From positions 9,026-73,025 of the forward strand of contig CALXVM010000002.1 of NCBI GenBank assembly GCA_944392105.1: DNA of 64,000 bases, read 5' to 3'. The DNA comes from an uncultured Clostridia bacterium (GTDB taxonomy: Bacteria; Bacillota; Clostridia; TANB77; CAG-508). Below the pieces are notes generated by a model. It was given only the letters and a program-made list of their open reading frames with translations, searched no databases and was not told the DNA's origin. Positions 12,196-64,000 of the stretch are shown piece by piece (within the stretch, counting starts at the first letter, position 1; each line of letters starts with the position of its first letter). A program made the position numbers and the translations under genes.

Positions 12196-12537
12196 TTACA
12201 TTATTCCTGGTATATTGTATTTTCCAAATTGAGCAGCTTGTGCACTGTCTACTTTTCTTAATGCTTCATTTACACATCCCAAAATTAAGTCTTGTAACAT
12301 TTCTACATCATCTGGGTCTACAACATCTTTTTGTATTTTTATTTCTTTTATTTCTTTTGAACCAGATACTTTTACACTTACAGCTCCACCACCTGCTGAT
12401 GCCTCGAATTCTTGGCTAGCAAGTTCTGCTTGTGATTTTTCCATATCTGCTTGCATTTTTTTTGCTTCTTTCATTAATTGTCCTATGTTCATACCTCCGA
12501 AGCCTCCGCCCATACCTGGGAATCCTCTTTTTGACAT
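12196..12537 (-). CDS. ybaB: nucleoid-associated protein YbaB/EbfC
   Basis: 113 aa; [15 protein letters not shown]...; lies between dnaX and recR. Confidence 0.9.
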
Positions 12538-12549
12538 AAAATTTCCTCC

Positions 12550-14169
12550 TTATTCATCTATAATATTAATTGATATATCTAAATCTTTTGTAGCTTCCGA
12601 AAGTGCGCTTTCTTCTGCTTTCTTTTTAACTATATTATCATTACTATCTAAAAGTTTAACTTGCATTGTTTTTCCACATTCTGTTGATATTAATCTTACT
12701 AATTCAGTATGGTTTTCTGGTTTTTCTAAAACTGTTTTTACAAATGGAGTTAATCCATTTATAAAAATAATTCCTATAGTCATGTCGTTAATTTCTACTA
12801 ATTTTGTATTTAATAAATTTGTAGCAACTAAAATTTTACCTGATTTTTTTAAAGTATCAATAACTTTTGGCCAAAAATCTAAACCTTTTATTTTTGATGT
12901 ATCTACTTTTTTATTATCTTCTGATTTTTGAGTAGTTGCTACCTTTTGAGCATTAGCATTACTACTAGGTTGATTTTCTGGATTTTTCTCTACTTTAGAG
13001 AAATCCATACTTCCAATATCTTTAATTTTTTGCTCTAATTTTGTTATTCTATTGTTTATATCTTCTAAGCCTGTGGCACTTGCTTCTGAGCTTTCTTTTG
13101 AGCATAATTTAATTACTTCTACTTGTAGCATTAAACTTTTTTGAGAAGACCACTTTATATTGTTTTCGCATTCTGACAAATCATATATAATTTTTAATAG
13201 CCTTTCTTTTGAAATTTTCTCTGAAAGCTCTTCAATTACCTTAATTTCTTCACTACTATACAAATCTAATTTTTTACTAGTTTTGTAGACCAAAATGTCT
13301 TTTATATATTTTATAAGTTCCCAAATAAGATTTGTTACATCTTTTCCTTGATCTAAAACTATATTTATATTTTCTAAAGCCTGGTCTAAATTATAATCAA
13401 ATATTGACTCTGTTATTTTAGATATAAATTCTAGTTTTGGCATTCCTACCAAATCTTTTACTAAATCTATTTCTATTTTATTATTTCCGTCTTGCAAGCA
13501 CCTTTCTAGAATACTAAGTGCATCTCTCATAGCTCCTTCTGCTAATACTGAAATTAATTTTATAGCATCTTCTGTTATCTCGATATTACTTTCTTTTGCA
13601 ACATATTTTAACCTTTTTGCTATATCTTCATTAGAAATTTTTTTAAAGTCAAATCTCTGACATCTTGAAAGTATTGTTGCTGGAAGTTTTTGAGGCTCAG
13701 TTGTTGCTAGTATAAACTTTACATGCTCTGGTGGTTCTTCTAATGTCTTTAAGAGTGCATTAAATGCACCTGTTGATAGCATATGAACCTCATCTATTAT
13801 ATATACTCTATATTTAGCTAATGTTGGTAAAAAATTAACTTCATCTCTAATAGAACGTATGTCATCAACACTATTATTAGATGCAGCATCCATTTCTACG
13901 ATGTCTGTCAATGAACCTGCTAATGCTGCTTTACATATTTCGCATTCATTACAAGGCTCTCCATCTTGAGGATTTAAGCAATTTACAGCTCTTGCTAAAA
14001 TTTTCGCACTAGTTGTCTTTCCTGTACCACGTCCACCATTGAACAGATATGCATGACCAGTTCTTCCTGCTATTACTTGATTTTTTAGAGTTCTAGTAAT
14101 TGCTTCTTGACCTACCATATCATCGAATCGTAATGGTCTAAATTTTCTATATAATGCTGTATATGCCAA
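12550..14169 (-). CDS. dnaX: DNA polymerase III subunits gamma/tau
   Basis: HAYLFNGGRGTGKTT Walker A, a Cys zinc module, and the clamp-loader box. Confidence 0.95.
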   Translation of the reverse strand: MAYTALYRKFRPLRFDDMVGQEAITRTLKNQVIAGRTGHAYLFNGGRGTGKTTSAKILARAVNCLNPQDGEPCNECEICKAALAGSLTDIVEMDAASNNSVDDIRSIRDEVNFLPTLAKYRVYIIDEVHMLSTGAFNALLKTLEEPPEHVKFILATTEPQKLPATILSRCQRFDFKKISNEDIAKRLKYVAKESNIEITEDAIKLISVLAEGAMRDALSILERCLQDGNNKIEIDLVKDLVGMPKLEFISKITESIFDYNLDQALENINIVLDQGKDVTNLIWELIKYIKDILVYKTSKKLDLYSSEEIKVIEELSEKISKERLLKIIYDLSECENNIKWSSQKSLMLQVEVIKLCSKESSEASATGLEDINNRITKLEQKIKDIGSMDFSKVEKNPENQPSSNANAQKVATTQKSEDNKKVDTSKIKGLDFWPKVIDTLKKSGKILVATNLLNTKLVEINDMTIGIIFINGLTPFVKTVLEKPENHTELVRLISTECGKTMQVKLLDSNDNIVKKKAEESALSEATKDLDISINIIDE

Positions 14170-35791: not shown

Positions 35792-36447
35792 TATAAAAAT
35801 TAAATATGAAGCAATTTTAAATAATTAATATTAATTATTTAAAATTAATTCAAAAAATAGAAAAGAAAAATATTTATTTATTTTTCTTTTTTTATTTTGT
35901 ATTTTTTTATAAATATAAATTAATTATTTTAATAAATAAATGAATTATTAATAATTAATTCATTTGAATATACTTATTTAAAAATAAATTAATTATTTTT
36001 AAAAGAATTTAATAAATAATATCTCTATAAATTATTATTTTATTGAATATTATTTATTTTAATTATTTATTATTTGTTTTATTTAAATTAAATTATATTT
36101 TATTATAAATATAATTTAATAATTTATTATTTATTTAATTAATAATTATATTTTTTATTTATTTTAAATTATTTTTAATATTAAAAATTAATTATAATAA
36201 TATATAGAATTTTTTATTTTTTTAAATAAATAAATTAATAAATTAATTAATTAATTTATTATATTATTTTATTTAATTATCTAATAATTTAATTTTATAT
36301 TAATAATTAAATTTTAATTTATAATAATTAACATTTTTATATTAGACAAACAAATCCAATTTAATTTTTTATATTTAATATACTTCTTTTATTAAGTTTC
36401 TTTTTTATCCTCTCTTATTATATCTTTACGCAAATAATACAAAGTCA

Positions 36448-36827
36448 TTTTGACAACTTTATTGTAACTCTTAACTATATAATTTTTCTATATCTATTTA
36501 AAGTTCCATTTCAGTCTGTATAAATAACAGTATGCTTTCAAATTCACTAAAAAACTTATATCAATAGTACTTTTTTAATTAATATTTAAAATGTTAGTAT
36601 TCCGTTTACTTTTGATTTATAATTATTAAAAAATTTTAAACAAATAAATAATTTTCTTAATGCATTTCCTTTTTATTATAATATTATTTAAAATTTTTCA
36701 CTTTTCTTATTTTTCTTCTTAATTATTTTTCTCTAATAACTATAATATCTATATAATCATTTTGACAATTTTTTATATTACATTTTATTTTAAAATTATA
36801 TATTATATTTTTTGTGTTATGTATACT
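36448..36827 (+). repeat. module copy M1
   Basis: Box A at 36448, C at 36601, B at 36760, T at 36817. A-C is 153 nt, C-B is 159 nt, B-T is 57 nt. Confidence 0.8.
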
Positions 36828-36938
36828 TTGTTTAATTTATGTAAATTTATAATCTTCCTAACTTTTATTTTATAATAGCAAAAAATTGAATAACATTATA
36901 TTGTATTTTTATGCATTTTTTTATAAAATATTATAAAA

Positions 36939-36992: not shown

Positions 36993-37418
36993 TATATTTT
37001 ATTTTTTTATTTGATTTATAATTATTTAATTAATTAAATTTTATTATAATAAAAAAATTATTAATTAAATAATTATATTTTTTTATTAATAATTTTATAA
37101 TTATTTTTATAAATTTTATATTTTATTTTTTATACAATATTTTATAAATTAATATTATAATTATTTTTATAAACAAATTAATTATATTTAATATTTTATA
37201 TATAATTAATTTATTATTAATATAATTACTACTTTTACTTTTTATATAATTTTTTATTTTTATTTTAATTTTCATTTTTATAAATATTAATAATTACATT
37301 ACCTTTTATTTTTTAATTTTTTTAGTATATTATATATTAAGACACCACTTATAGTTAACATCTGTAAAAATTTTATTTCTTCTTTAGGACATAAACTTCA
37401 TTTTAAAAATCCATATCA

Positions 37419-37791
37419 TTTTGACAATTTAATATTTTTGTTTCCTCTTTTTTTATATTATTCTCTCATTTGTTATTATATTTCTATTACTTATTTTATA
37501 ATTTGTATCTACTTAAATATATTTTTCTTTTTCTATCCATTATTTATAGATTTTTCTAAACTACTGTAATCCGTTTAATTTATTTATTATATTTTATTAA
37601 ATTTGTATAAATATTTCTATTAAAATTGTTTTATTTTAATAATATGTTCTTATTAAAAAGCTGTATATATTAAATTTATAATACTTAATAATAAATTCTC
37701 CTTATCTATATAATATATAAATGTAATCTTTTTGACAATTTATTATTTATATGATTTCACTATTTATACATTAATAGATTATATGTATTCT
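37419..37791 (+). repeat. module copy M2
   Basis: A at 37419, C at 37570, B at 37730, T at 37781 (aTATGTATtCT). Spacings 151 / 160 / 51. Confidence 0.8.
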
Positions 37792-38397
37792 AATTTATAT
37801 TTTGAATTACGTAAACTTTTTTATCTTTATTTATTATTTAATGAAACTTAAACTTATCTCATTTTTTTGATTTGTATTATACATTTTTTAGTATGAAAAT
37901 TAATGTTAATTTTTTATATAAATTAATATTTAAAAAATAAATTTATATTGTTTAATTTTAATTAAATAATATTTAATTAAATAAATTAAATTTATTTAAT
38001 TTATTCAATTTATTTTTTAATAAACATTATTTAATTTATTTTTTTAAATTATTTTTTTATCATTTTATATATTATTTATTAAAATATAATAAATAATATA
38101 TTTTTTTATTTTTGTATTATATTTTTTTAGATTATTTTATTTTTAATATTTTTTTAATTAATTAATATCTCTAAAAAAATAAATTTAAAAATAAATATAA
38201 AAATAAAATATTTTATTTTTATATATTTTCTATAATTTTTATTTAATATTTTTATAAAAATAAACTAAAATTTTATATAGCATTTTTTCTAAAAATTGAT
38301 TGTAATATTTTCCATATTAAGTAAAATATACTTTTAATCTTACATGAGCTTTTTATATAAATGAATAATATTAATATTTTTTAACTCTATTTAATCA

Positions 38398-38784
38398 TTT
38401 TGACAATTTTATAAAAATATTTTCATACTATGTTCTTATTTTTTATAATAATTAATATTCTTTTCAGGCATTATATAATCTTTCCTCTCTTATAATATTT
38501 AAAATAAAAAATTTTGTACATATATCTATAATAAAAAAATATGAGAATTCCGTTTAGTTTTATATTATTTTTTTTATAAATTATAAAAAAAAATAATATA
38601 AATTTCTTTATCTTTTGTTAAATATATATGTTTTTTAGTAACTAATCTTTGTATAAATTTTATCAGTCATAAAAAAATTAATATTAGTTTATTTAATATT
38701 AATATCTTTTTGACAATTTTCTTGTTTTTATAATATCTCTATAATATAATTGTTTCTTCCCTTATTTTATATTTTATGTATACT
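38398..38784 (+). repeat. module copy M3
   Basis: A at 38398, C at 38549, B at 38708, T at 38774. Spacings 151 / 159 / 66. Confidence 0.8.
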
Positions 38785-38896
38785 ATATTATAATATTAAA
38801 TTCCAAAAATTTTATTTAATTTCTTTAAGTAATTTTTAATTAATATTTGAAACTTAATGACTTTATTTTAAATATTTTTTTATTTTCAAACATAAG

Positions 38897-38934: not shown

Positions 38935-39336
38935 TATATTAATTTATTTTTATATAAAATTTTATAAAATCTTTTATATAAAATAAATTTCTCTCAAAAA
39001 TAATAAAAAAATATTAAACAATATTTTTTTATGAATTTATTTTTTTAAATAAAAATATAACTATTTAATTTTTTATTATTTATTTTTTGGAATTTTATTT
39101 TTATTTAATAATTTTATTATTTAAAATATTAATTTTATTATTTAATAAATAATTATTATTATTACTTTTTATATTTTTTAACACAAATTTTTTATAAAAA
39201 AATTTTATTATTATTATATTATAAATTTGTTACAATTTTATTTATCAAAATAAATAGTATTATCTTTATTGAATTCATAGTATAATTATTTCGTATTATA
39301 CATATAAATATTTAATAGCTAAATTTTATTATATCT

Positions 39337-39732
39337 TTTTGACAAACTTTCATGTTTTTTTGAATTTTAATCTTTCATCTTCAAAATTTTATAAATTTCT
39401 ATAATTTATCTATCTCACATTTTTAGTAGAAAATATTTTTATTATTTTTTTCTCCTTTTAGACTCTTTTATTATGATTTCTTTTATCCGTTTATTTTCAT
39501 AATCTATTTTTTCATTTTTCTATATTTGGCAAATCTATTTTCATATTTTTATTAAAAAACAATTTTATAAAATGAATTTTATATCTTATCATATTTTTTT
39601 ATATTTTCAAATTTTTCTATATTTCTATAATCTTTTCTTAATCATTTTGGCAATATTTTTTTATATTTCTTATTACTTAATATTAGCTAACATATCATGA
39701 AAAAATCTTTTTTTCGTAAAATTATGTATACT
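39337..39732 (+). repeat. module copy M4
   Basis: A at 39337, C at 39486, B at 39645 (TTTTGGCAA), T at 39722. Spacings 149 / 159 / 77. Confidence 0.8.
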
Positions 39733-39819
39733 TTTTTATAAATTTTATTATCTACGTTTTAAAAAATTTTTATAATATAATTGTAATTTTTTTATAATAA
39801 AATTTATAAAATGCCATTA

Positions 39820-40020: not shown

Positions 40021-40618
40021 ATTAATTATTTATTTGTTTATTTTATCATTTAATTATTTATCTATTCATTTTTTATCATTTTATTAATTAATTATTTATT
40101 TTTTATATTATCCTGTTGTAATATTCTTCTTGTACTTTTTAATATTTTTTACTTATTAATCTTTTGAATTATAAAATAATGTTTATTTTTTATTCTATAA
40201 AATTCTAAATATTAAAAAAATAAATTAATAATTATTGTTTCTATAAATAAAAATTAAATATATAATAATTATTAATTATTTTTTATTAATTATTATAAAA
40301 ATATAACTATAATAAAATAATAAAATTATAAAAATAATTATAATAGAATTCATCTTTTTATAATTTTATTATAATTAATTATTAAAAAAAATTAATTAAA
40401 TAATTAATTTATAATATTTTTTAATAATATTTAATAAATTAAAATATTATTCATTACAATATAATAATTTTTATATTACATATAAATTATTATATTTGTT
40501 AACTTTATGTGTTACTATATTTAATCTAATTATTTTTTATTTAACCTTTTATAACTTATTCTGTTAATTTCATAAATAATATTAGAATTATATTTCTTTT
40601 TCTTCTTGTTTAATATCT

Positions 40619-41017
40619 TTTTGACAAATACATTTTGTATTTCTTTTATTTTTATAATTCTACTATGTTTTTTTCATTTATGTAACTATTATTTTTTTAT
40701 TAAATTCAAAATTTTTACAACTCTTCTACAAATTTTATCTTTTGTTAAAGTTTTTGTATCATATACAAATCCGTTCATTTTAGTGTTATAAATTTTAATA
40801 TTTTTTCCTCAAAAACTGTAAAAATAAAGTTAGCTTTATTTTGATTAATCTTTCTATATTTATATTATTCTTCTGGCACTCTTTTATATATTATCAAAAA
40901 CAAAATTGAGATTATTCATTGTTTGACCTTATTAACAATATTTCATACTGCTTTACATTTTATCACAAATATATATTCATACTTTCTAATCTCTCGATTT
41001 TCAATATTATGTATACT
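40619..41017 (+). repeat. module copy M5 (box B degenerate)
   Basis: A at 40619, C at 40770 (TCCGTTCA), B at 40921 (gTTTGACCt), T at 41007. Spacings 151 / 151 / 86. Confidence 0.7.
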
Positions 41018-41044
41018 TTTTTCTATCTTATAATTCTTTCAAAA

Positions 41045-41160
41045 TTTATTTATTTTAATTATTTATTTATTTATTTATTTTAATTAATTATTTATTTATT
41101 TATTTTATTATTTTATTATTTATTATTTTATTTATTTATTATTTTATTTATTTTATTTTA
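41045..41160. repeat. A/T microsatellite tract (TTTA / TTATT / TTATTTA units) between M5 and M6
   Basis: Visible run of ATTTATTTATTTATTT...TTATTTTATTATTTATTATTTTATTT. Confidence 0.7.
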
Positions 41161-41318
41161 CTTTTTATTAATACTATTTTTAATATAATTTTAAATTATA
41201 TTTTTTAATAAATTAAATATTTATTTATTTTACTATATTTAATTATTATTTAATAATAATTATGCATTATTATTTTAATATAAAAATATCAATAAAAGTA
41301 TTTACATAATGTAGATAT

Positions 41319-41696
41319 AGTATACATAATGCTTTTAAAATACTTCTTATAATTAAAGGCATATCTTTATATTTGATTTGTCAAAAAGGTAATATATAAT
41401 ATAAAAAAACGATCATTACATTTTTCTATATAAGCATTATTAATTTATTTGTTAAAATATAAATTGAGATTATTTATATTTTACATTAAAAACTATTCAA
41501 GATTAGATTTCAATTTAATAAAAATACAATTAAAATCCAAACGGAATATAGAATATTCAAAAATAATATATGGTTTACAATTTTTCTATCTTTTTTCTAT
41601 ATAAAAATATGAATACTTATAAAAAATATATAAGCTATTATTTTAATTATAAGTTTCTATATATAAAAAATAATTATTGCCTCAAATTTGTCAAAA
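41319..41696 (-). repeat. module copy M6 (inverted)
   Basis: Read on the minus strand: A at 41696, C at 41545 (TCCGTTTG), B at 41386, T at 41329. Spacings 151 / 159 / 57. Confidence 0.8.
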
Positions 41697-41825
41697 TAGT
41701 TGTATTATGAAAATTATCTTAGATATTTTATTAAAATATTTTTTCAAAGTAAATTGACCCAATTAAAAAAGTACTTAACAATTTCATTCTTATAATAATT
41801 ATTAATTATTTATTGTTTAATTAAT

Positions 41826-41930
41826 TTATTATTTATTATTTATTATTTTATTATTTATTATTTATTATTTATTATTTATTATTTTATTTATTTATTATTT
41901 TATTTATTTTATTTTTTTATTTATATAACA
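41826..41930. repeat. A/T microsatellite tract dominated by TTATTTA heptamers, between M6 and tRNA-Ser
   Basis: TTATTTATTATTTATTATTTTATTATTTATTATTTATTATTTATTATTTATT... Confidence 0.7.
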
Positions 41931-41977
41931 TAAAAGAAAGATATAATGTGTTTAAAACATTATATCTTTCTTTTTTA

Positions 41978-42069
41978 TGGCGGAGATTGAGGGATTTGAA
42001 CCCTCGCGGCCCTATACGAACCCTAACAGTTTAGCAAACTGTCCCCTTCAACCACTTGGGTAAATCTCC
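41978..42069 (-). tRNA. tRNA-Ser (anticodon GCT)
   Basis: Reverse complement GGAGATTTACCCAAGTGGTTGAAGGG...CAGTTTGCTAAACTG..., long variable arm, GGTTCAAATCC, CCA. Confidence 0.9.
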
Positions 42070-42107
42070 AAATTATTAGAAGTTCATAAATATTTTATAT
42101 AAAAAAA

Positions 42108-42199
<92 letters not shown>

Positions 42200-42426: not shown

Positions 42427-42933
42427 TTATTTTGAGTTTACAGCCTTTTCTATGGCTTCCTTTTCTTCATCTGATAATACATATTCTGATTTTCCGTCTT
42501 TTACAGGTTTAGAATATATATTTGAATTGTCTCTTGAATAAATGCCATTTAAAACAACTCCATTATTATTATTATCTAATAATGCTAAAGTAAAACTTAA
42601 GTTACTTCCTACATCTTTAAAGGCATTATATCTTACAATACCTACTTTTCGTATACAAGTATCAACAGTTTTATCTAATCTTTCACAATATTGTATTATT
42701 TCCTTATTCAAATCTTCTACTTTTTGTACTCTTTCAATATAACTTTTTAAGCTTTCATCTATATCTTTACCATTGCCTAATTTTTTCATAAATTCGGAAT
42801 AATCATGTTTTATTCTATTTAGTTTTAAGTAATTAAATACTAATAAAATAATTGATAAGATGGATATTATAAATAGTATTATTAAAAATGTATCTGTCTT
42901 TAAAAACTCTACAATATTACTCATTGCCCTCAT
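42427..42933 (-). CDS. DUF4446-family protein
   Basis: N-terminal TM helix; 168 aa. Overlaps the parB stop, the usual position downstream of spo0J in Clostridia. Confidence 0.65.
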   Translation of the reverse strand: MRAMSNIVEFLKTDTFLIILFIISILSIILLVFNYLKLNRIKHDYSEFMKKLGNGKDIDESLKSYIERVQKVEDLNKEIIQYCERLDKTVDTCIRKVGIVRYNAFKDVGSNLSFTLALLDNNNNGVVLNGIYSRDNSNIYSKPVKDGKSEYVLSDEEKEAIEKAVNSK

Positions 42934-43789
42934 TCCTTATTAAATCTAATATTCTTTCCAACTCCTCATTAGATGTATATTTTATTATTATTTTACCGCT
43001 TTTTTGTTTTGCATCTAATTTTACTTTTGTTCCGAAAAAATTTTGGAATGTATCTTCTATATCTCTATATATTGCTTCATATTTTTTATTTTGTTTTTCT
43101 ATAACCTTTTTATTTTTTACTCTTTGCTCTATATCTCTTACAGAATCCCCTGTTTCGATTATTTTTAATGCCATTTTATATTGTTTGTCCGGATCTTCAT
43201 AATTTAAAAGCTGTCTACAATGTCCTTCAGAAATTTTGCCTTCTCTTGCTAAGTTTTGTACTCTTTCGTCTAAATTTAATATTCTCAAATTATTGGATAT
43301 TGTACTTCTACCAATTCCTACAGTCTCACTTAATTCCTGTTGAGTCATTCCATATTCATCTAATAATTGTCTAAATCCTAAAGCTTTATCTATAGGGTTT
43401 AAATCTTCTCTTTGAATATTTTCTATTAATGCTATTTCTTTATTCTTTCTTTCATTGCTTTCTCTTACTAAGCAAGGAATTTCCATAAGTCCTGCCTTTT
43501 TAGCAGCTCTCCATCTTCTTTCACCAGCTACAATTTGATAATAATTATCCATTTTTGTAACTATTATTGGTTGTATAACACCATATTTCTTTATAGAAGT
43601 TGCTAATTCTTCTATACTCTCAGAGTTAAAGGTTCTTCTAGGTTGGTCTCTATTAGGCTCTATATCTATTAGTTTTAAGTTTTGTACTATTTCCTCTCCA
43701 TTTTGTAATTTTATTTCTTCTTCCTTAGTTAATTGATTATCATTAAATAAGGCTTCTAGACCTTTTCCTAATCCTGTTTTTTTAACCAT
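42917..43789 (-). CDS. spo0J: chromosome partitioning protein ParB/Spo0J
   Basis: GERRWRAAKKAG ParB box plus an HTH. Confidence 0.9.
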   Translation of the reverse strand: MVKKTGLGKGLEALFNDNQLTKEEEIKLQNGEEIVQNLKLIDIEPNRDQPRRTFNSESIEELATSIKKYGVIQPIIVTKMDNYYQIVAGERRWRAAKKAGLMEIPCLVRESNERKNKEIALIENIQREDLNPIDKALGFRQLLDEYGMTQQELSETVGIGRSTISNNLRILNLDERVQNLAREGKISEGHCRQLLNYEDPDKQYKMALKIIETGDSVRDIEQRVKNKKVIEKQNKKYEAIYRDIEDTFQNFFGTKVKLDAKQKSGKIIIKYTSNEELERILDLIRNEGNE

Positions 43790-57810: not shown

Positions 57811-57819
57811 TTATCCACA
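57811..57819 (+). promoter_or_regulatory. consensus DnaA box just after gyrB
   Basis: TTATCCACA. TGTGGAAAA follows at 57835..57843. Confidence 0.5.
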
Positions 57820-57902
57820 GAATAAGAACAACATGTGGAAAAACATATTAAAAACTAACAAAAAAGTTAATAAATTAAAGAAATAAATTTATTAAATATT
57901 TT

Positions 57903-58634: not shown

Positions 58635-58655
58635 ATACGAAAGGAGGTAAAGAAA

Positions 58656-59219
58656 ATAAAAAAAAATAAACTTTCAGTTCAAGAATGGCTACCGTTTGAA
58701 AAAATATTAGAAAATGGTATTATAAAAATTAACAAAACAACTTATGTAAAAATAGTAAATGTAAAGCCAATTAATTTTAATCTTAAATCTGAATTAGAAA
58801 AAGAATCTATATTAAATTCTTACAAAATTTTTTTAAAATCCTGCGATTTTGATTTCCAAATATTAATCCAAAGTAAGAAAGAAGATTTAAATAAACATAT
58901 AGAAGAAATAAAAAAAGTTGAGGATGAACCCAATATAAAAGAAATATCAAATAAATACATTAATTATATAAAATCACTTAACCATGACAAAAAATCATCT
59001 TCAAAAAATTTTTATATTATTCTAAGATATAAAAATAATAACGAAAAAGATGACAATATAGAAAATTATGCTATAGAAGAACTAAACGAAAAATATTTTA
59101 AAATTAAAGATTGCTTATCTAGATGTGGAAATATAGTTTTATCAAATAATACAGCTAAAAGTACTTTGGAAATATTATATTCTTTTTTTAATACAAGAAT
59201 TAATTTGAATTTAATGTAA
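58656..59219 (+). pseudogene. N-terminal domain fragment of a Gram-positive VirB4 (Tn916 ORF16-like), with no canonical start codon
   Basis: Open frame 58557..59219 has no in-frame ATG or GTG, and its only in-frame TTGs lie in the last 18 codons. AAGGAGG (58641..58647) is followed after 8 nt by ATA. Encodes ...LSVQEWLPFEKILENGIIKINKTTYVKIVNVKPINFNLKSELEKESILNSYKIFLKSCDFDFQILIQSKKEDL... Confidence 0.6.
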
Positions 59220-59243
59220 AACTTTATTCTTTAAGGAGGTTAA

Positions 59244-61073
59244 ATTATTTTTTATTCTAAAAGAAAAAATAAACAAATAAAAACAGAAGAAAAATTTAAT
59301 TTTTTAGAAGGAACTTTTTCAAATAAAGATTATTTAAGTCCATCTTATATTAATTTAAACAATCCAAAATATATAGAAATAGATAATATGCTTTTTTCTG
59401 TTATATTAGTAACTAATTATAACCGAGAACAATCGGAATTAATTTTAAAATCTTTAATAGATACTAATATAAATATTAATATATCTATCTTCTATGAAAA
59501 ACAAGATCCATATAAAACAATAAGAAATTTAACTTACCATATAGGAAATGTAGGAGTAGACTTAAAAGGAAAAAATCAAAATAGACAAGATATTGATATT
59601 GCAGCATTTACATATAATGATGCAAAATACATAAGAAAAGAAATGCAAGTAAATAATGAGGACTTATATTTTTTATACATATATGTAAGTACTTTTTCGA
59701 CAGATGAAAAAGAATTAGAATACTTATTAAATAAAATAGAAGGAATTTTGCAAAGCAAAGGCATGCAAACCATAAGAGCATATTTTAGACAAGAGCAAGG
59801 ATTTAAAGCAATATTACCTTTAATGGAAAATAGTATAGATGTTAAAGAAGCAGCAAAAAGAAATGTATTAACTAGTGGACTACTTGCTACATACCCATTT
59901 ATTTCTTCGGCAATATTTGATGAAACAGGAATATTTATAGGTACAAATATATATAACAATTCTTTAGTATTTATAGATAGATATGATAAAAATAAATATA
60001 AAAATGCAAATATATGTATTTTTGGAACAAGTGGAGCAGGAAAATCTTTTTATACAAAATTATTAATTTTAAGATGTAGATTATTAGGAATTGAGCAATA
60101 TATTATAGATCCGGAAAGAGAATATAATAAATTATGTAAAAATTTAAATGGATTATTATTAAAATTAGGACATAGTTCAGACTCATACATAAATATATTT
60201 GATATTAGAAAAGAAAGTTTAGAAGAAGGGGAAGAAGGATATTTAGCAAATAAAATAAGTAAATTAATTGGCTTTTTTAATTTAATATTCGGAAATATTA
60301 ACGAAGAAGAAAGAGCTTTACTAGAAGAAAAATTAATAGAGGTATATAAATTAAAAGGCATAACTTTTGATGACAATAGTTTATTTAAAAAAGAAAATGG
60401 AAAAATAAATATAAAACCAGTATTTAAAGATACATATGATATGCCAATATTAGAAGATTTTTATAATATTTTAAACGATAGCCGTACAAAAACTTTTAAA
60501 ACAAAATTAATTCCCTTTGTAAAGGGATCATTAAAATTTTTTAATAATTACACTAATGTAATTATAGATAATAAACTTATTGTAGCAGACATATACGAAT
60601 TAGGTGAAGAAAACTTAAAATATGCGATGTGGGTATGCATAGACCTTTTTTGGGACTTAATAAAAAAAGATAGAAACATAAAAAAAGCAATATACCTAGA
60701 TGAAATATGGAGATTAATTGGAGTAACTTCAAATAAAGATGTAGCTAGTTTCATTTATAAAATATTTAAAACAATTAGAAAATATGGAGGAAGTGGAGTA
60801 GCTATAACACAAGATGTTTCAGACTTATTTAGTTTAGAAGATGGAACATATGGAAGAAGTATATTAAATAATTCAGAAATAAAAACATTTTTTTCCTTAG
60901 AAGAAGAAAATATAAAAGTTTTAGAAAAATATTCAAACTTATCAGAAAAAGAAAAAATAGAAATAAAATCATTAAAAAGAGGAGAATGTTTAATGTTTGT
61001 AGGAGGAGAACATATACTAACTAACATAGAAGCAGCAGAATTTGAAAAAGAAATAATAGAAGGGAGAAAATAA
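59244..61073 (+). CDS. VirB4/TrsE-family type IV secretion ATPase (central and C-terminal part)
   Basis: GTSGAGKSF Walker A, DPEREY, LDEIW Walker B, AITQD. The frame is open from 59244. AAGGAGG (59233..59239) is followed by ATT at 59244 and 59247. The first ATG (59388) would remove conserved N-terminal sequence. Confidence 0.8.
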   Translation: MIFYSKRKNKQIKTEEKFNFLEGTFSNKDYLSPSYINLNNPKYIEIDNMLFSVILVTNYNREQSELILKSLIDTNININISIFYEKQDPYKTIRNLTYHIGNVGVDLKGKNQNRQDIDIAAFTYNDAKYIRKEMQVNNEDLYFLYIYVSTFSTDEKELEYLLNKIEGILQSKGMQTIRAYFRQEQGFKAILPLMENSIDVKEAAKRNVLTSGLLATYPFISSAIFDETGIFIGTNIYNNSLVFIDRYDKNKYKNANICIFGTSGAGKSFYTKLLILRCRLLGIEQYIIDPEREYNKLCKNLNGLLLKLGHSSDSYINIFDIRKESLEEGEEGYLANKISKLIGFFNLIFGNINEEERALLEEKLIEVYKLKGITFDDNSLFKKENGKINIKPVFKDTYDMPILEDFYNILNDSRTKTFKTKLIPFVKGSLKFFNNYTNVIIDNKLIVADIYELGEENLKYAMWVCIDLFWDLIKKDRNIKKAIYLDEIWRLIGVTSNKDVASFIYKIFKTIRKYGGSGVAITQDVSDLFSLEDGTYGRSILNNSEIKTFFSLEEENIKVLEKYSNLSEKEKIEIKSLKRGECLMFVGGEHILTNIEAAEFEKEIIEGRK

Positions 61074-61074
61074 T

Positions 61075-62403
61075 ATGAAAACTGTTATGACAGCAGTAGC
61101 AAATCCTATAATAAATGAAAAATTAAAAAATGAAACAAACATACAAATTATAGGCAATGATATACAATATAAAGAAGGAGTAATAGAAGCATTAGAAAAA
61201 AATAAAGAAATAAATTATTTAATATTAAGCGATATATTAATAGGAAAAGAATTATTAATAGAATTAATAAAAAAAATTAAAATAATAAATAAAAATATTA
61301 AAATATTAGTAATATTAACAGAAGAAAATAAAAAAGAATGCGATAATTTAATATCTTGCGGAGTAGAAAAAATATTCTATAATAATAATGTAGAAATTAA
61401 AGAAATTGTAAAAGTAATTAATGAAGAAAATGAAACAGATAAATTAATAGAAGAAATTAATTCTTTAAAAAAAATAATAATAGAAAATAATAACAAAAAT
61501 AATTTAGAAAAAAATAAAAAAACACAAAATAAAATAAAAAAAGAAAATAAATTAAAAAATAAATTATTAATATTTAATAAAATAAAAATAATAAATAATA
61601 TAAAAAATAAAATAAATAAATATTTACCTAAAAAATTAATTAATAAAAATAATAATATAAAAAGTGAAGTTATATCTGTTTTAGGTCCAGCAGGAGTGGG
61701 GAAGAGTATTTTTACAATTAATTTAGCTAATTCATATGTTTATTCTAAAAATAAAATTTTAATTATAGATTTTGATATCTTAAATAATAGTCTACATACA
61801 ATTTTAGGTCTAAAAAAATATTCCAAAATAATAAGAGAAAAATTAAAAAATAATAATTTAATAAATAGCAAAATAAATATTAAAGAATTAACTATTAAAA
61901 TAACAAATAAAATAGACTTAATTTCTGGAATAAATTTATTATTTGATTCAAAATATAAAATAAGTAGTGAAAAAATATATAATATAATTAATGAATTAAA
62001 AGAAAAATATGAAATAATAATTATAGATAATTCTGCTGAATGCTTTTTTGATTATACAAAAAATATTATAGAAAATAGTAATATTAATATATTTATTACA
62101 GAAGCAAATTTATCTGAAATAAAAAAATCAAAAAATTTATTAAATATATATATCAATAAATGGAATATTAATAAAAATAAAATAAATATATTATTTAATA
62201 AATTTAATAAAAATAGTATAGACATAAATATATTAAAAAATATTTTTAATGAATTTAATATATTAGGAAAATTAAATTTTGATGATAAATACAATTTAAT
62301 AATAAATAAAAATGGAATAACTTGTGATAATAAAATTATGAAAGAATATATAAATATAAATAAAAAAATAGAAGAAGAAAATTTAACTAAAATAAAAAAT
62401 TAA
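61075..62403 (+). CDS. ParA/MinD-superfamily ATPase with receiver-like N-domain (TadZ/CpaE-like architecture) and an N/K-rich low-complexity linker
   Basis: VLGPAGVGKS deviant Walker A at about aa 200. The N-terminal ~120 aa alternate in a beta-alpha pattern. Residues ~135-195 are nearly all N, K, I and L. Confidence 0.65.
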   Translation: MKTVMTAVANPIINEKLKNETNIQIIGNDIQYKEGVIEALEKNKEINYLILSDILIGKELLIELIKKIKIINKNIKILVILTEENKKECDNLISCGVEKIFYNNNVEIKEIVKVINEENETDKLIEEINSLKKIIIENNNKNNLEKNKKTQNKIKKENKLKNKLLIFNKIKIINNIKNKINKYLPKKLINKNNNIKSEVISVLGPAGVGKSIFTINLANSYVYSKNKILIIDFDILNNSLHTILGLKKYSKIIREKLKNNNLINSKINIKELTIKITNKIDLISGINLLFDSKYKISSEKIYNIINELKEKYEIIIIDNSAECFFDYTKNIIENSNINIFITEANLSEIKKSKNLLNIYINKWNINKNKINILFNKFNKNSIDINILKNIFNEFNILGKLNFDDKYNLIINKNGITCDNKIMKEYININKKIEEENLTKIKN

Positions 62404-62818
62404 AAAATAAAATAAATTAATATTAATTAATATATATGTTTATTTATTAATAATAAAAATTAAATTATTATTTTCATAAAAATATTTTTTTGGAATTTTA
62501 TTAAATAAACAAAAAATAAATAAAATAAAAAATCTTATAAAAAAATAAAAATAACAATGATTAAAAAAATAAAATATTAATTAAAATAAAATTATTATTT
62601 TTATAAAAATACTTTTTTAATTTATTAAATAAAATAAAAAAATAATTAAGAGAAAATATAAAATATAAAAAATAATAATTAATAAAAAATTAATTTAAAA
62701 AATAATTTAAAATAAAAATATATAATTTAAAAGATATAAAAAACTAAAAAATATAAATTTGTTTTTTTAAATAGTAAAAAAGTAAATAGAAGAACAAGGT
62801 TACATAAATATAAAACTA

Positions 62819-63195
62819 TGTATACATAATAATGGAAAATACAAGATTTGAAAAAAGTAAAAATATATATTTGAATTTACCAAAAAGACAAAATAGAATA
62901 TTTAGAATATAAATAAAAAATAAGGAAGAGATTATAAACTTATATTTTAAAATGATGAATAACGTTAATTAGTAATAAAGGTATGTAAAAAAATATATTT
63001 TTTAAACGAAAATATACGAAAAAAATAAAACAAAAACAAACGGATCTCTAGGAATTATAAAAATGGATAAAAATAATAAAAATTAAAAACGTATCAATAA
63101 AATATAGGTATATATGTAAATTATTTAGTTACATATAAAATGTATATAAAAAATAAAAGAAGAAAATTTTAAAAAACAATCTTAAATTGTCAAAA
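62819..63195 (-). repeat. module copy M7 (inverted, right of oriC)
   Basis: Read on the minus strand: A at 63195, C at 63044 (TCCGTTTG), B at 62885 (TTTTGGTAA), T at 62829 (TTATGTATACA). Spacings 151 / 159 / 56. Flanked by A/T-only spacers at about 62404-62760 and about 63350-63700. Confidence 0.75.
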
Positions 63196-63571
63196 TGGTA
63201 AAAATATATAGCGAAAAATAAGAAAAGAAAAATTATAAATTGTTTATAAAAAATTTGTATATTTTGAAAATTGTATATTAACTTTTTAAAAAACTTTTAT
63301 ACAATAAATTAAACTTATACATAAAAAATAGTTATATTAAAAATATATTTTAAATTAATAATTATAAAAAATAATAATTAATAAAAAAATAATTATTAAA
63401 ATTTTAAAAATAAAAAAATTAAAATAAAAATAATTAAAGATTAAATATAAAAAATAAATTAAAATAAAAATATAAAAAAATAAAATATATTAAAAATAAA
63501 TAATTATTTTTTTAATATATTTAAAATAAATTTTTATAATTATTTTTTAAATTAAATATTAAAATTTCAAA

Positions 63572-63606
63572 ATTAAAAATTAAAAATTAAAAATTAAAAA
63601 TTAAAA
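63572..63606. repeat. tandem heptamer (ATTAAAA) x5
   Basis: ATTAAAAATTAAAAATTAAAAATTAAAAATTAAAA. Confidence 0.8.
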
Positions 63607-63739
63607 ATAATTATTATTTATATAATTACAATTAAATAAATAATAATTAAAAACAATAATATTAATTAATATTATAAAAAATTTTAATCATTATCTATTA
63701 AAATATAAAAATAAAATCAACGAAAGAGGTGTTTTAAAT

Positions 63740-64000
63740 ATGAGTAACTTATTAGAGAATAATCAAGAAATAAGTAATACTTTGACAAATTCTAATGAAA
63801 ATGAGCTAACAAATGAAAAAGAACAAAAAAGTTTTTTAGAGACAACATTAGGGAAAACAATTAATACAGCAATTGACATAGGATTAAGATGGGTATTACC
63901 AGATTTTATAGAAAATCAAATAATAGATGTAAAAGATAGTTTAATTAAAGGAGGTCTAAAGGAAGGAATAAATACTGTTATAGATAGTGCTGTTGATATG
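63740..64000 (+). CDS. hypothetical protein, 5' part (runs off the right edge)
   Basis: AAAGAGGTG RBS, then ATG at 63740. Encodes MSNLLENNQEISNTLTNSNENELTNEKEQKSFLETTLGKTINTAIDIGLRWVLPDFIENQIIDVKDSLIKGGLKEGINTVIDSAVDM, open to the window end. Confidence 0.55.
   Translation, partial: MSNLLENNQEISNTLTNSNENELTNEKEQKSFLETTLGKTINTAIDIGLRWVLPDFIENQIIDVKDSLIKGGLKEGINTVIDSAVDM

Follow-up and report, generated by a model that had tools for sequence, protein, structure and literature searches.

The 64,000-nucleotide stretch analysed here (hereafter the window, part of contig CALXVM010000002.1 of an uncultured Clostridia bacterium) contains, between a gene for a ParA-like ATPase and the next open reading frame (ORF), a module designated M7. 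It is the seventh copy of an element that carries four short boxes, A, C, B and T in that order. The element is real, under selection and non-coding. Judged by the arrangement of its putative sites, the module most probably serves DNA-binding proteins as a place to dock. M7 was tentatively interpreted as a secondary inverted copy of a lineage-specific cis-acting platform, which would act as an origin-proximal architectural element; the probability of this interpretation is placed somewhat short of even.

Exactly seven modules were found in the window, M1 to M6 forming an array to the left of oriC and M7 lying across it (Table 1). Each is a non-coding segment of approximately 380–400 bp with the four boxes, and the unit of the array measures about 1 kb. 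When the boxes were relaxed in a composite scan, a C box accompanied by an A as well as a B partner was detected solely at the seven modules, and partial box matches elsewhere in the window stayed at the level of shuffled sequence. The motif TTTTGACAA occurs 13 times in the window (2.0 expected), 11 of these inside modules. The exact A-C-B pattern was matched once in 596 Gb of other genomes, within an ORF of 874 aa. The coordinates given for M7 in the first-pass annotation and its A–C, C–B and B–T spacings of 151, 159 and 56 bp all hold. M7 was also confirmed as a true seventh copy inside a gene string resembling a type IV secretion system (T4SS), with VirB4-like, ParA-like, VirB6-like, pilin and coupling-protein genes. 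The separation of its two neighbouring genes, previously estimated at about 1.3 kb, was measured at 1336 bp, from the end of the ParA-like ORF at 62403 to the start of the next ORF at 63740.

The species compared are labelled X (the window), Y (loci L023 and L044), W (L038), V (L042 and L039), U (L043) and Z (L017, L019, L030, L032, L033 and L041). In an alignment of 17 modules from four species, the conserved columns were confined to the boxes. Bodies of paralogous modules aligned at 0.67–0.73, against 0.69 ± 0.02 for shuffled sequence. M1 to M6 of X and Y are one-to-one orthologues (scores of 105–166 on the diagonal versus 8–57 off it); their bodies are heavily diverged, with a raw identity of 69–76%, and their boxes are almost unchanged. 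As this identity is close to the value of about 0.69 obtained for shuffled sequence with the same aligner, it is unusable as an evolutionary rate. The flanking genes of X and Y are 88–91% identical, with 59–74% identity at fourfold degenerate sites.

The distance from A to C is 149–153 bp and that from C to B 157–161 bp in 18 modules of four species, despite many insertions and deletions. The distance from B to T is 56–57 bp in M1, M6 and M7, 66–67 bp in M3 and in species Z, and 76–78 bp in M2, M4 and M5 (for M2, measured to TTACGTAAACT). It is congruent to 6–7 modulo 10 in all eight module families, a result with a probability of about 1e-5 by chance. Relative V keeps the C box, and its A/B core reads TKGNCAA after TTTAC. 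Counted from C, its A core is found at −128 and its B core at +140 (or +130), where X has −149 and +161; the shifts amount to 21 and 21 (or 31) bp. In relative U, the T box is followed at 57–58 bp by TATTCCGCA (C') in all seven modules. The A and B boxes change jointly from lineage to lineage, ATC-N5-GACAA becoming TTTAC-N5-KGNCAA, which is what two sites recognised by a single protein should do. Spacings in whole helical turns point to a protein-binding platform acting at the level of DNA. Such phased spacing is the behaviour of presumed protein sites that share one face of the helix, and not that of a gene or an RNA. These comparisons have shown that only the four boxes and their helical phase are under selection, the intervening sequence being left to drift.

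Between strains, the bodies of the left array differ by 0.25–0.9%, versus 0.06–0.5% in genes. The M7 body differs by 2.55% in two strains (L004 and L024), compared with which its flanking genes differ by 0.26–0.72% and its spacers by approximately 0%. A general hypermutation of module bodies was rejected, since M7 alone reaches 2.55%, and does so in two strains. It was further observed that the M7 bodies of X and Y have no detectable likeness, the M7 of Y being nearest to the M1 of Y. The strain divergence of M7 and this likeness could mean faster evolution or gene conversion.

The left array is located between BcrAD/DUF2229 genes and the cluster tRNA-Ser (two genes)–DUF4446–parB–parA, about 10 kb from dnaA. 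X, Y, Z, V and U all have a gene-free periodic array in this position, down to 62% identity of DUF4446. X and Y have six modules each, U has seven and V about seven, and the number in Z is one to at least three. Neither the order nor the orientation of the array changes among strains or from X to Y, and approximately 6 kb is kept at this locus across deep divergence in genomes of about 1.5 Mb. That the array stays beside parAB and oriC over this distance lends some support to the origin-domain role proposed in the first-pass annotation. The modules of species Z score about 290–390 against each other and below 60 against any module of X or Y, and the near-identical copies number from one (L041) to at least three. 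This pattern is a sign of either concerted evolution or a recent gain and loss of tandem copies.

The modules sit 10–17 kb from dnaA; M6 lies 11.5–11.9 kb and M7 9.6–10.0 kb from the dnaA–dnaN cluster of DnaA boxes (around 53.21 kb). The distances of about 10–12 kb on either side of the origin, which had suggested a mirror-image placement, are thus correct, but they do not reflect a conserved design: in V, the left array exists without a copy on the right, and mirror symmetry is therefore not a conserved requirement. As had been proposed, the A-to-T direction points toward oriC in six of the seven copies and away from it in M6. In every species, the T-box end faces oriC in the left-array modules and in M7, with M6 as the sole exception. 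The inversion of M6 is common to X and Y. C exceeds G by about 2:1 in six of the module bodies and not in the inverted M6. Over positions 41001–42000, M6 was likewise seen to be devoid of the C>G and T>A skews of M1–M5 and M7. Since the spacers flanking M6 retain a T-rich bias on the plus strand, the inversion was limited to the M6 body.

X, Y (both loci) and W all carry M7 at one and the same gene junction. The copy is absent from L039 (species V) and L040, where the ParA-like gene is separated from the ORF241 orthologue by 15 bp and 1 bp, respectively. The M7 copies score best, weakly, against M1-type modules, with which they share the 57-bp class of B-to-T distance and a second T-like motif; an M1-type source of M7 is thus weakly indicated. 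The VirB4-like and ParA-like genes are located in the window, and the VirB6-like, pilin and coupling-protein genes just beyond it. The gene string gyrB–VirB4-like–ParA-like–ORF–gyrA–dnaI-like–DnaD-like–VirB6-like–pilin–coupling protein is conserved in relatives, so that M7 is an insertion into an old operon and not part of a recent integrative and conjugative element (ICE). The earlier suggestion that the unit can move or duplicate gains some support from the occurrence of M7 in the three closer species only and from the variable copy number in Z. The comparison of orthologous loci proposed with it revealed the pattern of presence and absence, but no target-site duplication was recognised at M7.

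In the favoured reading, a platform of about 380 bp would present four putative protein-binding boxes on fixed faces of the helix. A and B would be two copies of one site, ATCWTTTTGACAA, with C (TCCGTTT) midway between them and the T site, TTATGTATACT, placed 57, 67 or 77 bp after B. On origin-proximal DNA, the boxes may assemble a wrapped or looped multi-protein complex. The primary array, which follows parA–parB–DUF4446–tRNA-Ser(x2), would serve chromosome organisation or segregation around oriC, possibly by forming a polar barrier, or a site of unloading or anchoring, that travellers moving outward from the origin would meet T box first. M7 would go back to the copying of a module into the VirB4-like/ParA-like/ORF246 operon, in the ancestor shared by three species. 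A host function in origin organisation or segregation is suggested because the array persists by parAB and oriC in a reduced genome. Keeping so much gene-free DNA beside parAB and oriC over deep divergence comes at a cost to a genome of this size, and selection on four boxes and their helical phase alone would be the signature of a higher-order protein–DNA machine. Should such a machine organise or insulate the origin region, it would represent a novel way to segregate origins or to control the complexes for structural maintenance of chromosomes (SMC), and M7 would illustrate the copying of an element of this kind across the origin into an operon.

Several points weigh against this reading. 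The boxes are putative protein sites known from sequence alone, and the spacers lack the 10–11-bp periodicity of A-tracts. Only two loci are known, and the metagenome scan could be shown to be incomplete. Relatives can dispense with the right-hand copy, and some strains of Z have a single module. In U, the sets and order of boxes differ, and a shared function across the clade is assumed.

[quoted passage not shown] Its unit would be a helically phased multi-protein landing pad in ultra-A/T DNA; the pads would be polar, facing the origin on both replichores, in a spore-forming lineage of Clostridia with reduced genomes. Such a takeover would explain why no parS lies within tens of kb of parB.

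The main rival, considered unlikely, is that the modules are recombination sites of the cer/psi or att type belonging to a selfish or domesticated duplicating unit, with T as the recombinase site. In cer/psi and attP, phased accessory sites stand beside a recombinase site, and the phased boxes upstream of the short, partly palindromic T site resemble this layout. Direct T-like repeats occur in M1, M2, M6 and M7; M6 is inverted, M7 is inserted at a new site and the copy number varies in Z; and the array adjoins tRNA genes, which are common integration sites. The T box also matches 10 of the 11 positions of TTATGTAAACT, the right half of the dif site of Bacillus subtilis (PMC3025954). This match is not distinctive, as sites with at most one mismatch number 16 in the window versus 14 ± 4 expected by chance. 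Moreover, the 30 nt upstream of 26 T boxes hold no conserved second arm, so that no T box has an inverted partner and no complete two-arm dif/Xer core is present. For both reasons, the likeness of the T box to this half of dif, which we take to be the XerD-binding arm, is a lead only. There is no recombinase gene nearby, and the annotated part of the window yielded no integrase, such as the intI of an integron cassette array. Resolution sites in direct repeat should be lost by deletion, whereas the array is stable across strains and between X and Y; its position is fixed over deep time, with no recognised target-site duplication.

Features of mobile elements were likewise looked for. Neither the terminal inverted repeats nor the target duplications of a miniature inverted-repeat transposable element or insertion sequence were seen, and the copies of X and Y are saturated in divergence. 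The M7 body had no match in plasmid and phage collections (BLAST), nor did the pattern scan of viral contigs give any. An array of clustered regularly interspaced short palindromic repeats (CRISPR) was rejected: the unit is about 1 kb without a short identical repeat, and the Rfam CRISPR match has an E-value of 1.7, below the gathering score.

It is quite improbable that the modules are a non-canonical centromere, read by ParB or by a partner of the ParA-like ATPase in place of the missing parS. Both loci lie directly downstream of ParA-family genes, and no canonical parS (TGTTNCACGTGNAACA, a 16-bp palindrome, with at most two mismatches) was found in the 64-kb oriC window, parB at 42917–43789 included. 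Matches with three mismatches in the window are all located outside the modules. In approximately 156 kb of origin-proximal DNA from relatives (L002, L008 and L038–L043), a single parS with two mismatches was detected, at 16645 of L042. Yet the boxes are not 16-bp palindromes, TTGNCAA alone being symmetric, and ParB has the ordinary ParB_N, HTH_ParB and ParB_C domains. The ParA-like gene occurs without any module in L039 and L040, and a parS could lie beyond the sequence sampled.

A role in transcription, in which the modules would be transcribed units or arrays of promoters (small unstructured RNAs, for instance, or promoters reading outward that restore the expression of ORF246 after the insertion), is similarly held to be improbable. 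The A and B boxes contain TTGACA, whose reverse complement TTGTCA is also −35-like, and one V module reads, by eye, TTGACA-17-TATAAT on the reverse strand. Some promoter matches were flagged in X, the bodies show a purine/pyrimidine asymmetry linked to orientation (except M6), and ORF246 is intact downstream of the 1.3-kb insert. Against this, promoter-like sites did not exceed those of shuffled sequence (99 versus 109, and 24 versus 22), no −10 element is conserved at a fixed distance from any box, and the TKGNCAA core of relative V is not a −35 hexamer; for want of such an excess and in view of this core, a sigma-70 promoter array was rejected. Terminators were not above the shuffled expectation, and the bodies have neither sequence conserved between paralogues nor conserved structure. 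Minimum free energy (MFE) z-scores mostly scatter around zero on both strands without a consistent signal, the lower values being about −1.9 for M6 (forward) and −2.1 and −2.9 for the two strands of M7. RNAalifold predicted no pairs on 17 modules, and no Rfam match was obtained at the gathering threshold or with E up to 5. A structured non-coding RNA was rejected on these results. No ORF or frame is shared among the modules in six-frame translation, the spacing of the boxes is not a multiple of 3, and the alignments of X and Y carry indels of 1–2 nt. Repeats encoding a small protein or a type I toxin-antitoxin system were rejected, as no short ORF is conserved in a constant frame.

That the modules titrate or position DnaA or Spo0A, and thereby control initiation or sporulation as the first-pass annotation had envisaged, is very improbable. 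The modules are near oriC and the organism is a spore former. TTTGTCRAA is a form of the 0A box, and the reverse complement of the A/B site, TTGTCAAAA, is one base from it. However, no TGTCGAA or TGNCGAA box of Spo0A occurs in any module, and no DnaA box (of the TTATCCACA type, at most one mismatch) was found at 34.6–44.4 kb or 57.85–64.0 kb. The A/B core also differs between close lineages, while the specificities of Spo0A and DnaA are conserved. A cluster of DnaA boxes of the datA, DARS or DnaA-box-cluster kind was rejected for lack of clustered boxes. A perfect DnaA box, TTATCCACA, together with an inverted near-box was observed at 57811–57842, just after gyrB and outside the two classical oriC clusters (51.6 and 53.2 kb). 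The motifs of CodY, CtsR, TnrA, IHF and sigma-54, the ARG box, the PurBox and GTnAC of EbfC were compared by eye only and rejected; a YbaB/EbfC gene is located at 12196–12537 of the window.

The already disfavoured reading of a functionless A/T-rich satellite, grown by slippage and tandem duplication with the boxes as leftovers, is hardly credible: the spacers are strain-variable slippage repeats, the copy number varies in Z and the bodies lack detectable conserved sequence, but the boxes are nearly invariant where paralogous bodies are at the shuffled level, their spacing is kept through compensating indels and quantised in helical turns, and reduced genomes of about 1.5 Mb have kept about 6 kb at a single locus despite their deep divergence.

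Table 1. Modules of the window and features of the M7 locus (positions in the window; box positions of M1–M6 under details)
Feature	Position	Strand	Details
M1	36338-36888	plus	A 36448, C 36601, B 36760, T 36817
M2	37309-37859	plus	A 37419, C 37570, B 37730, T-equivalent TTACGTAAACT 37807
M3	38288-38838	plus	A 38398, C 38549, B 38708, T 38774
M4	39227-39777	plus	A 39337, C 39486, B 39645, T 39722
M5	40509-41059	plus	A 40619, C 40770, degenerate B ~40930, T 41007
M6, inverted copy	41256-41806	minus	A 41696, C 41545, B 41386, T 41329
Two tRNA-Ser genes	41978-42199	minus	between array and DUF4446-parB-parA in every species examined
ParA/MinD-family ATPase gene, upstream of M7	61075-62403	plus	442 aa, with N-terminal extension
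M7 T-side spacer	62404-62760		96% A+T, 13 G+C in 357 bp; degenerate short tandem repeats
M7 body (G/C-bearing island)	62761-63300	minus	15% G+C, 81 G+C in 540 bp
M7 second T-like motif, TTATGTAACC	62798-62807	minus	~22 nt past T box
M7 T box, TTATGTATACA	62819-62829	minus	family consensus TTATGTATACT
M7 B box, degenerate, GTCTTTTTGGTAA	62877-62889	minus	consensus ATCWTTTTGACAA
M7 C box, GATCCGTTTG	63037-63046	minus	core TCCGTTT at 63044-63038
M7 A box, ACCATTTTGACAA	63187-63199	minus	
M7 A-side spacer	63301-63700		97.5% A+T, 10 G+C in ~401 bp; short tandem repeats
ORF246 (start), downstream of M7	63740-64000	plus	246 aa in full, no Pfam family

The family consensus of the C box is WTCCGTTYA, followed by TTTT-N3-TTA. 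The second T-like motif of M7 is also present in M1 and M6, and M2 carries TTACGTAAACT. The flanks of the M7 body, previously described as A/T-only, are nearly but not strictly so (Table 1). They consist of slippage-type repeats, the length of which differs among strains, with a 127-bp duplication in the T-side spacer and (AAATTAA)n at 63549–63608 in the A-side spacer. In species Y, the M7 body begins right after the stop codon of the ParA-like gene and the T-side spacer is absent; the A/T spacer is thus an expandable accessory, and the view of spacer-module-spacer as an obligatory unit had to be abandoned.

Some observations were made on the neighbouring genes. The ParA-like ORF has about 15% G+C and contains A/T-only runs of 47–83 bp (61262–61308, 61544–61626 and 62164–62215), which would encode low-complexity inserts rich in Lys, Asn and Ile. 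T4SS-like genes are found at 58650–64000 and 384–2006, and at 12674–21329 of L002. The set consists of a VirB4-like, a ParA/TadZ-like and a VirB6-like protein, a VirB2-like pilin and two coupling proteins, and its genes are interleaved with gyrB, gyrA, dnaI-like and DnaD-like genes in an order kept to approximately 54–72% identity. The string looks vertically inherited rather than a recent ICE. The VirB4-like gene appears split or truncated in X (189 + 561 aa; 58650–59219 and 59388–61073) and in W (228 + 350 aa; L038 6313–7999), and forms a single ORF of 616 aa in V (L039 6149–7999); in X and W it may be decaying or frameshifted.

The locus recurs in assemblies of one uncultured organism, many of them independent, from ENA, Logan and NCBI. 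The organism is a spore former, with genes for YpeB, SleB-like and GerM proteins. Contigs of relatives reach 1.5–1.75 Mb, with genomes of about 1.5 Mb. The host belongs to a very prevalent group of uncultured Clostridia in which the module is conserved, with a human gut origin according to sample names, which are unverified. In practice, the boxes make a convenient marker of the lineage, and they account for the breaks of its assemblies at this locus. In the metagenome scan, which missed a contig known to hold exact matches, 11 loci were real modules. Eight of these lie at the same two loci, and L017, L032 and L025 hold modules alone, with no flank for placement. A further 14 matches were off-target, on contigs of 28–49% G+C; the one that was checked (L014) lies within an ORF of 520 aa. 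Six contigs of 40–49% G+C (L014, L015, L027, L028, L029 and L034) share an identical A-C-B match starting with TGAGTTTTGACAAAGAT, which appears to be a conserved gene fitting the pattern by chance, and not modules.

The box sequences were found in no relevant paper, and the element appears to be undescribed. Among known systems, the LDR and Sib/Ibs repeats of type I toxin-antitoxin systems are also tandem intergenic units of 0.5–1 kb with conserved short elements; unlike them, the modules are devoid of a conserved small ORF, of a promoter pair and of RNA structure. parS/ParB, the ram sites of RacA, DnaA-box clusters and datA/DARS are, like the modules, non-coding cis elements around oriC and beside parAB. 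Their defining motifs were not found in the modules, and they are single short motifs, whereas each module has four boxes within about 380 bp and belongs to a unit of about 1 kb. With cer/psi and the phage attP intasome, the modules share a size of a few hundred bp, accessory sites helically phased to the recombinase site, and the importance of geometry over the intervening sequence. They differ in having neither a complete two-arm core nor a linked recombinase gene, no ARG box or known accessory consensus (the ArgR/ArcA/PepA region was compared by eye only), and a chromosomal, tandem and positionally stable arrangement.

XDS are XerD sites without the XerC arm, and the lone 11-bp TTATGTATACT of the module is one base from TTATGTAAACT. 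They occur near the terminus, whereas the modules flank the origin; the match of the module is not above chance, its T box is one of four phased boxes, and XerD binding is putative. Arrays of XDS have been reported, as cited in PMC11840125, to block Smc–ScpAB and thereby create a boundary. The archaeal TrmBL2 boundary is an A-tract-rich roadblock for SMC, proposed to stall loop extruders (PMC11840125). It belongs to another domain of life and involves another protein, and the modules, which are known from their sequence only, have spacers without A-tract phasing. What both have in common is an A/T-rich intergenic region of approximately 2–6 kb in which protein sites stand next to a Xer-type motif.

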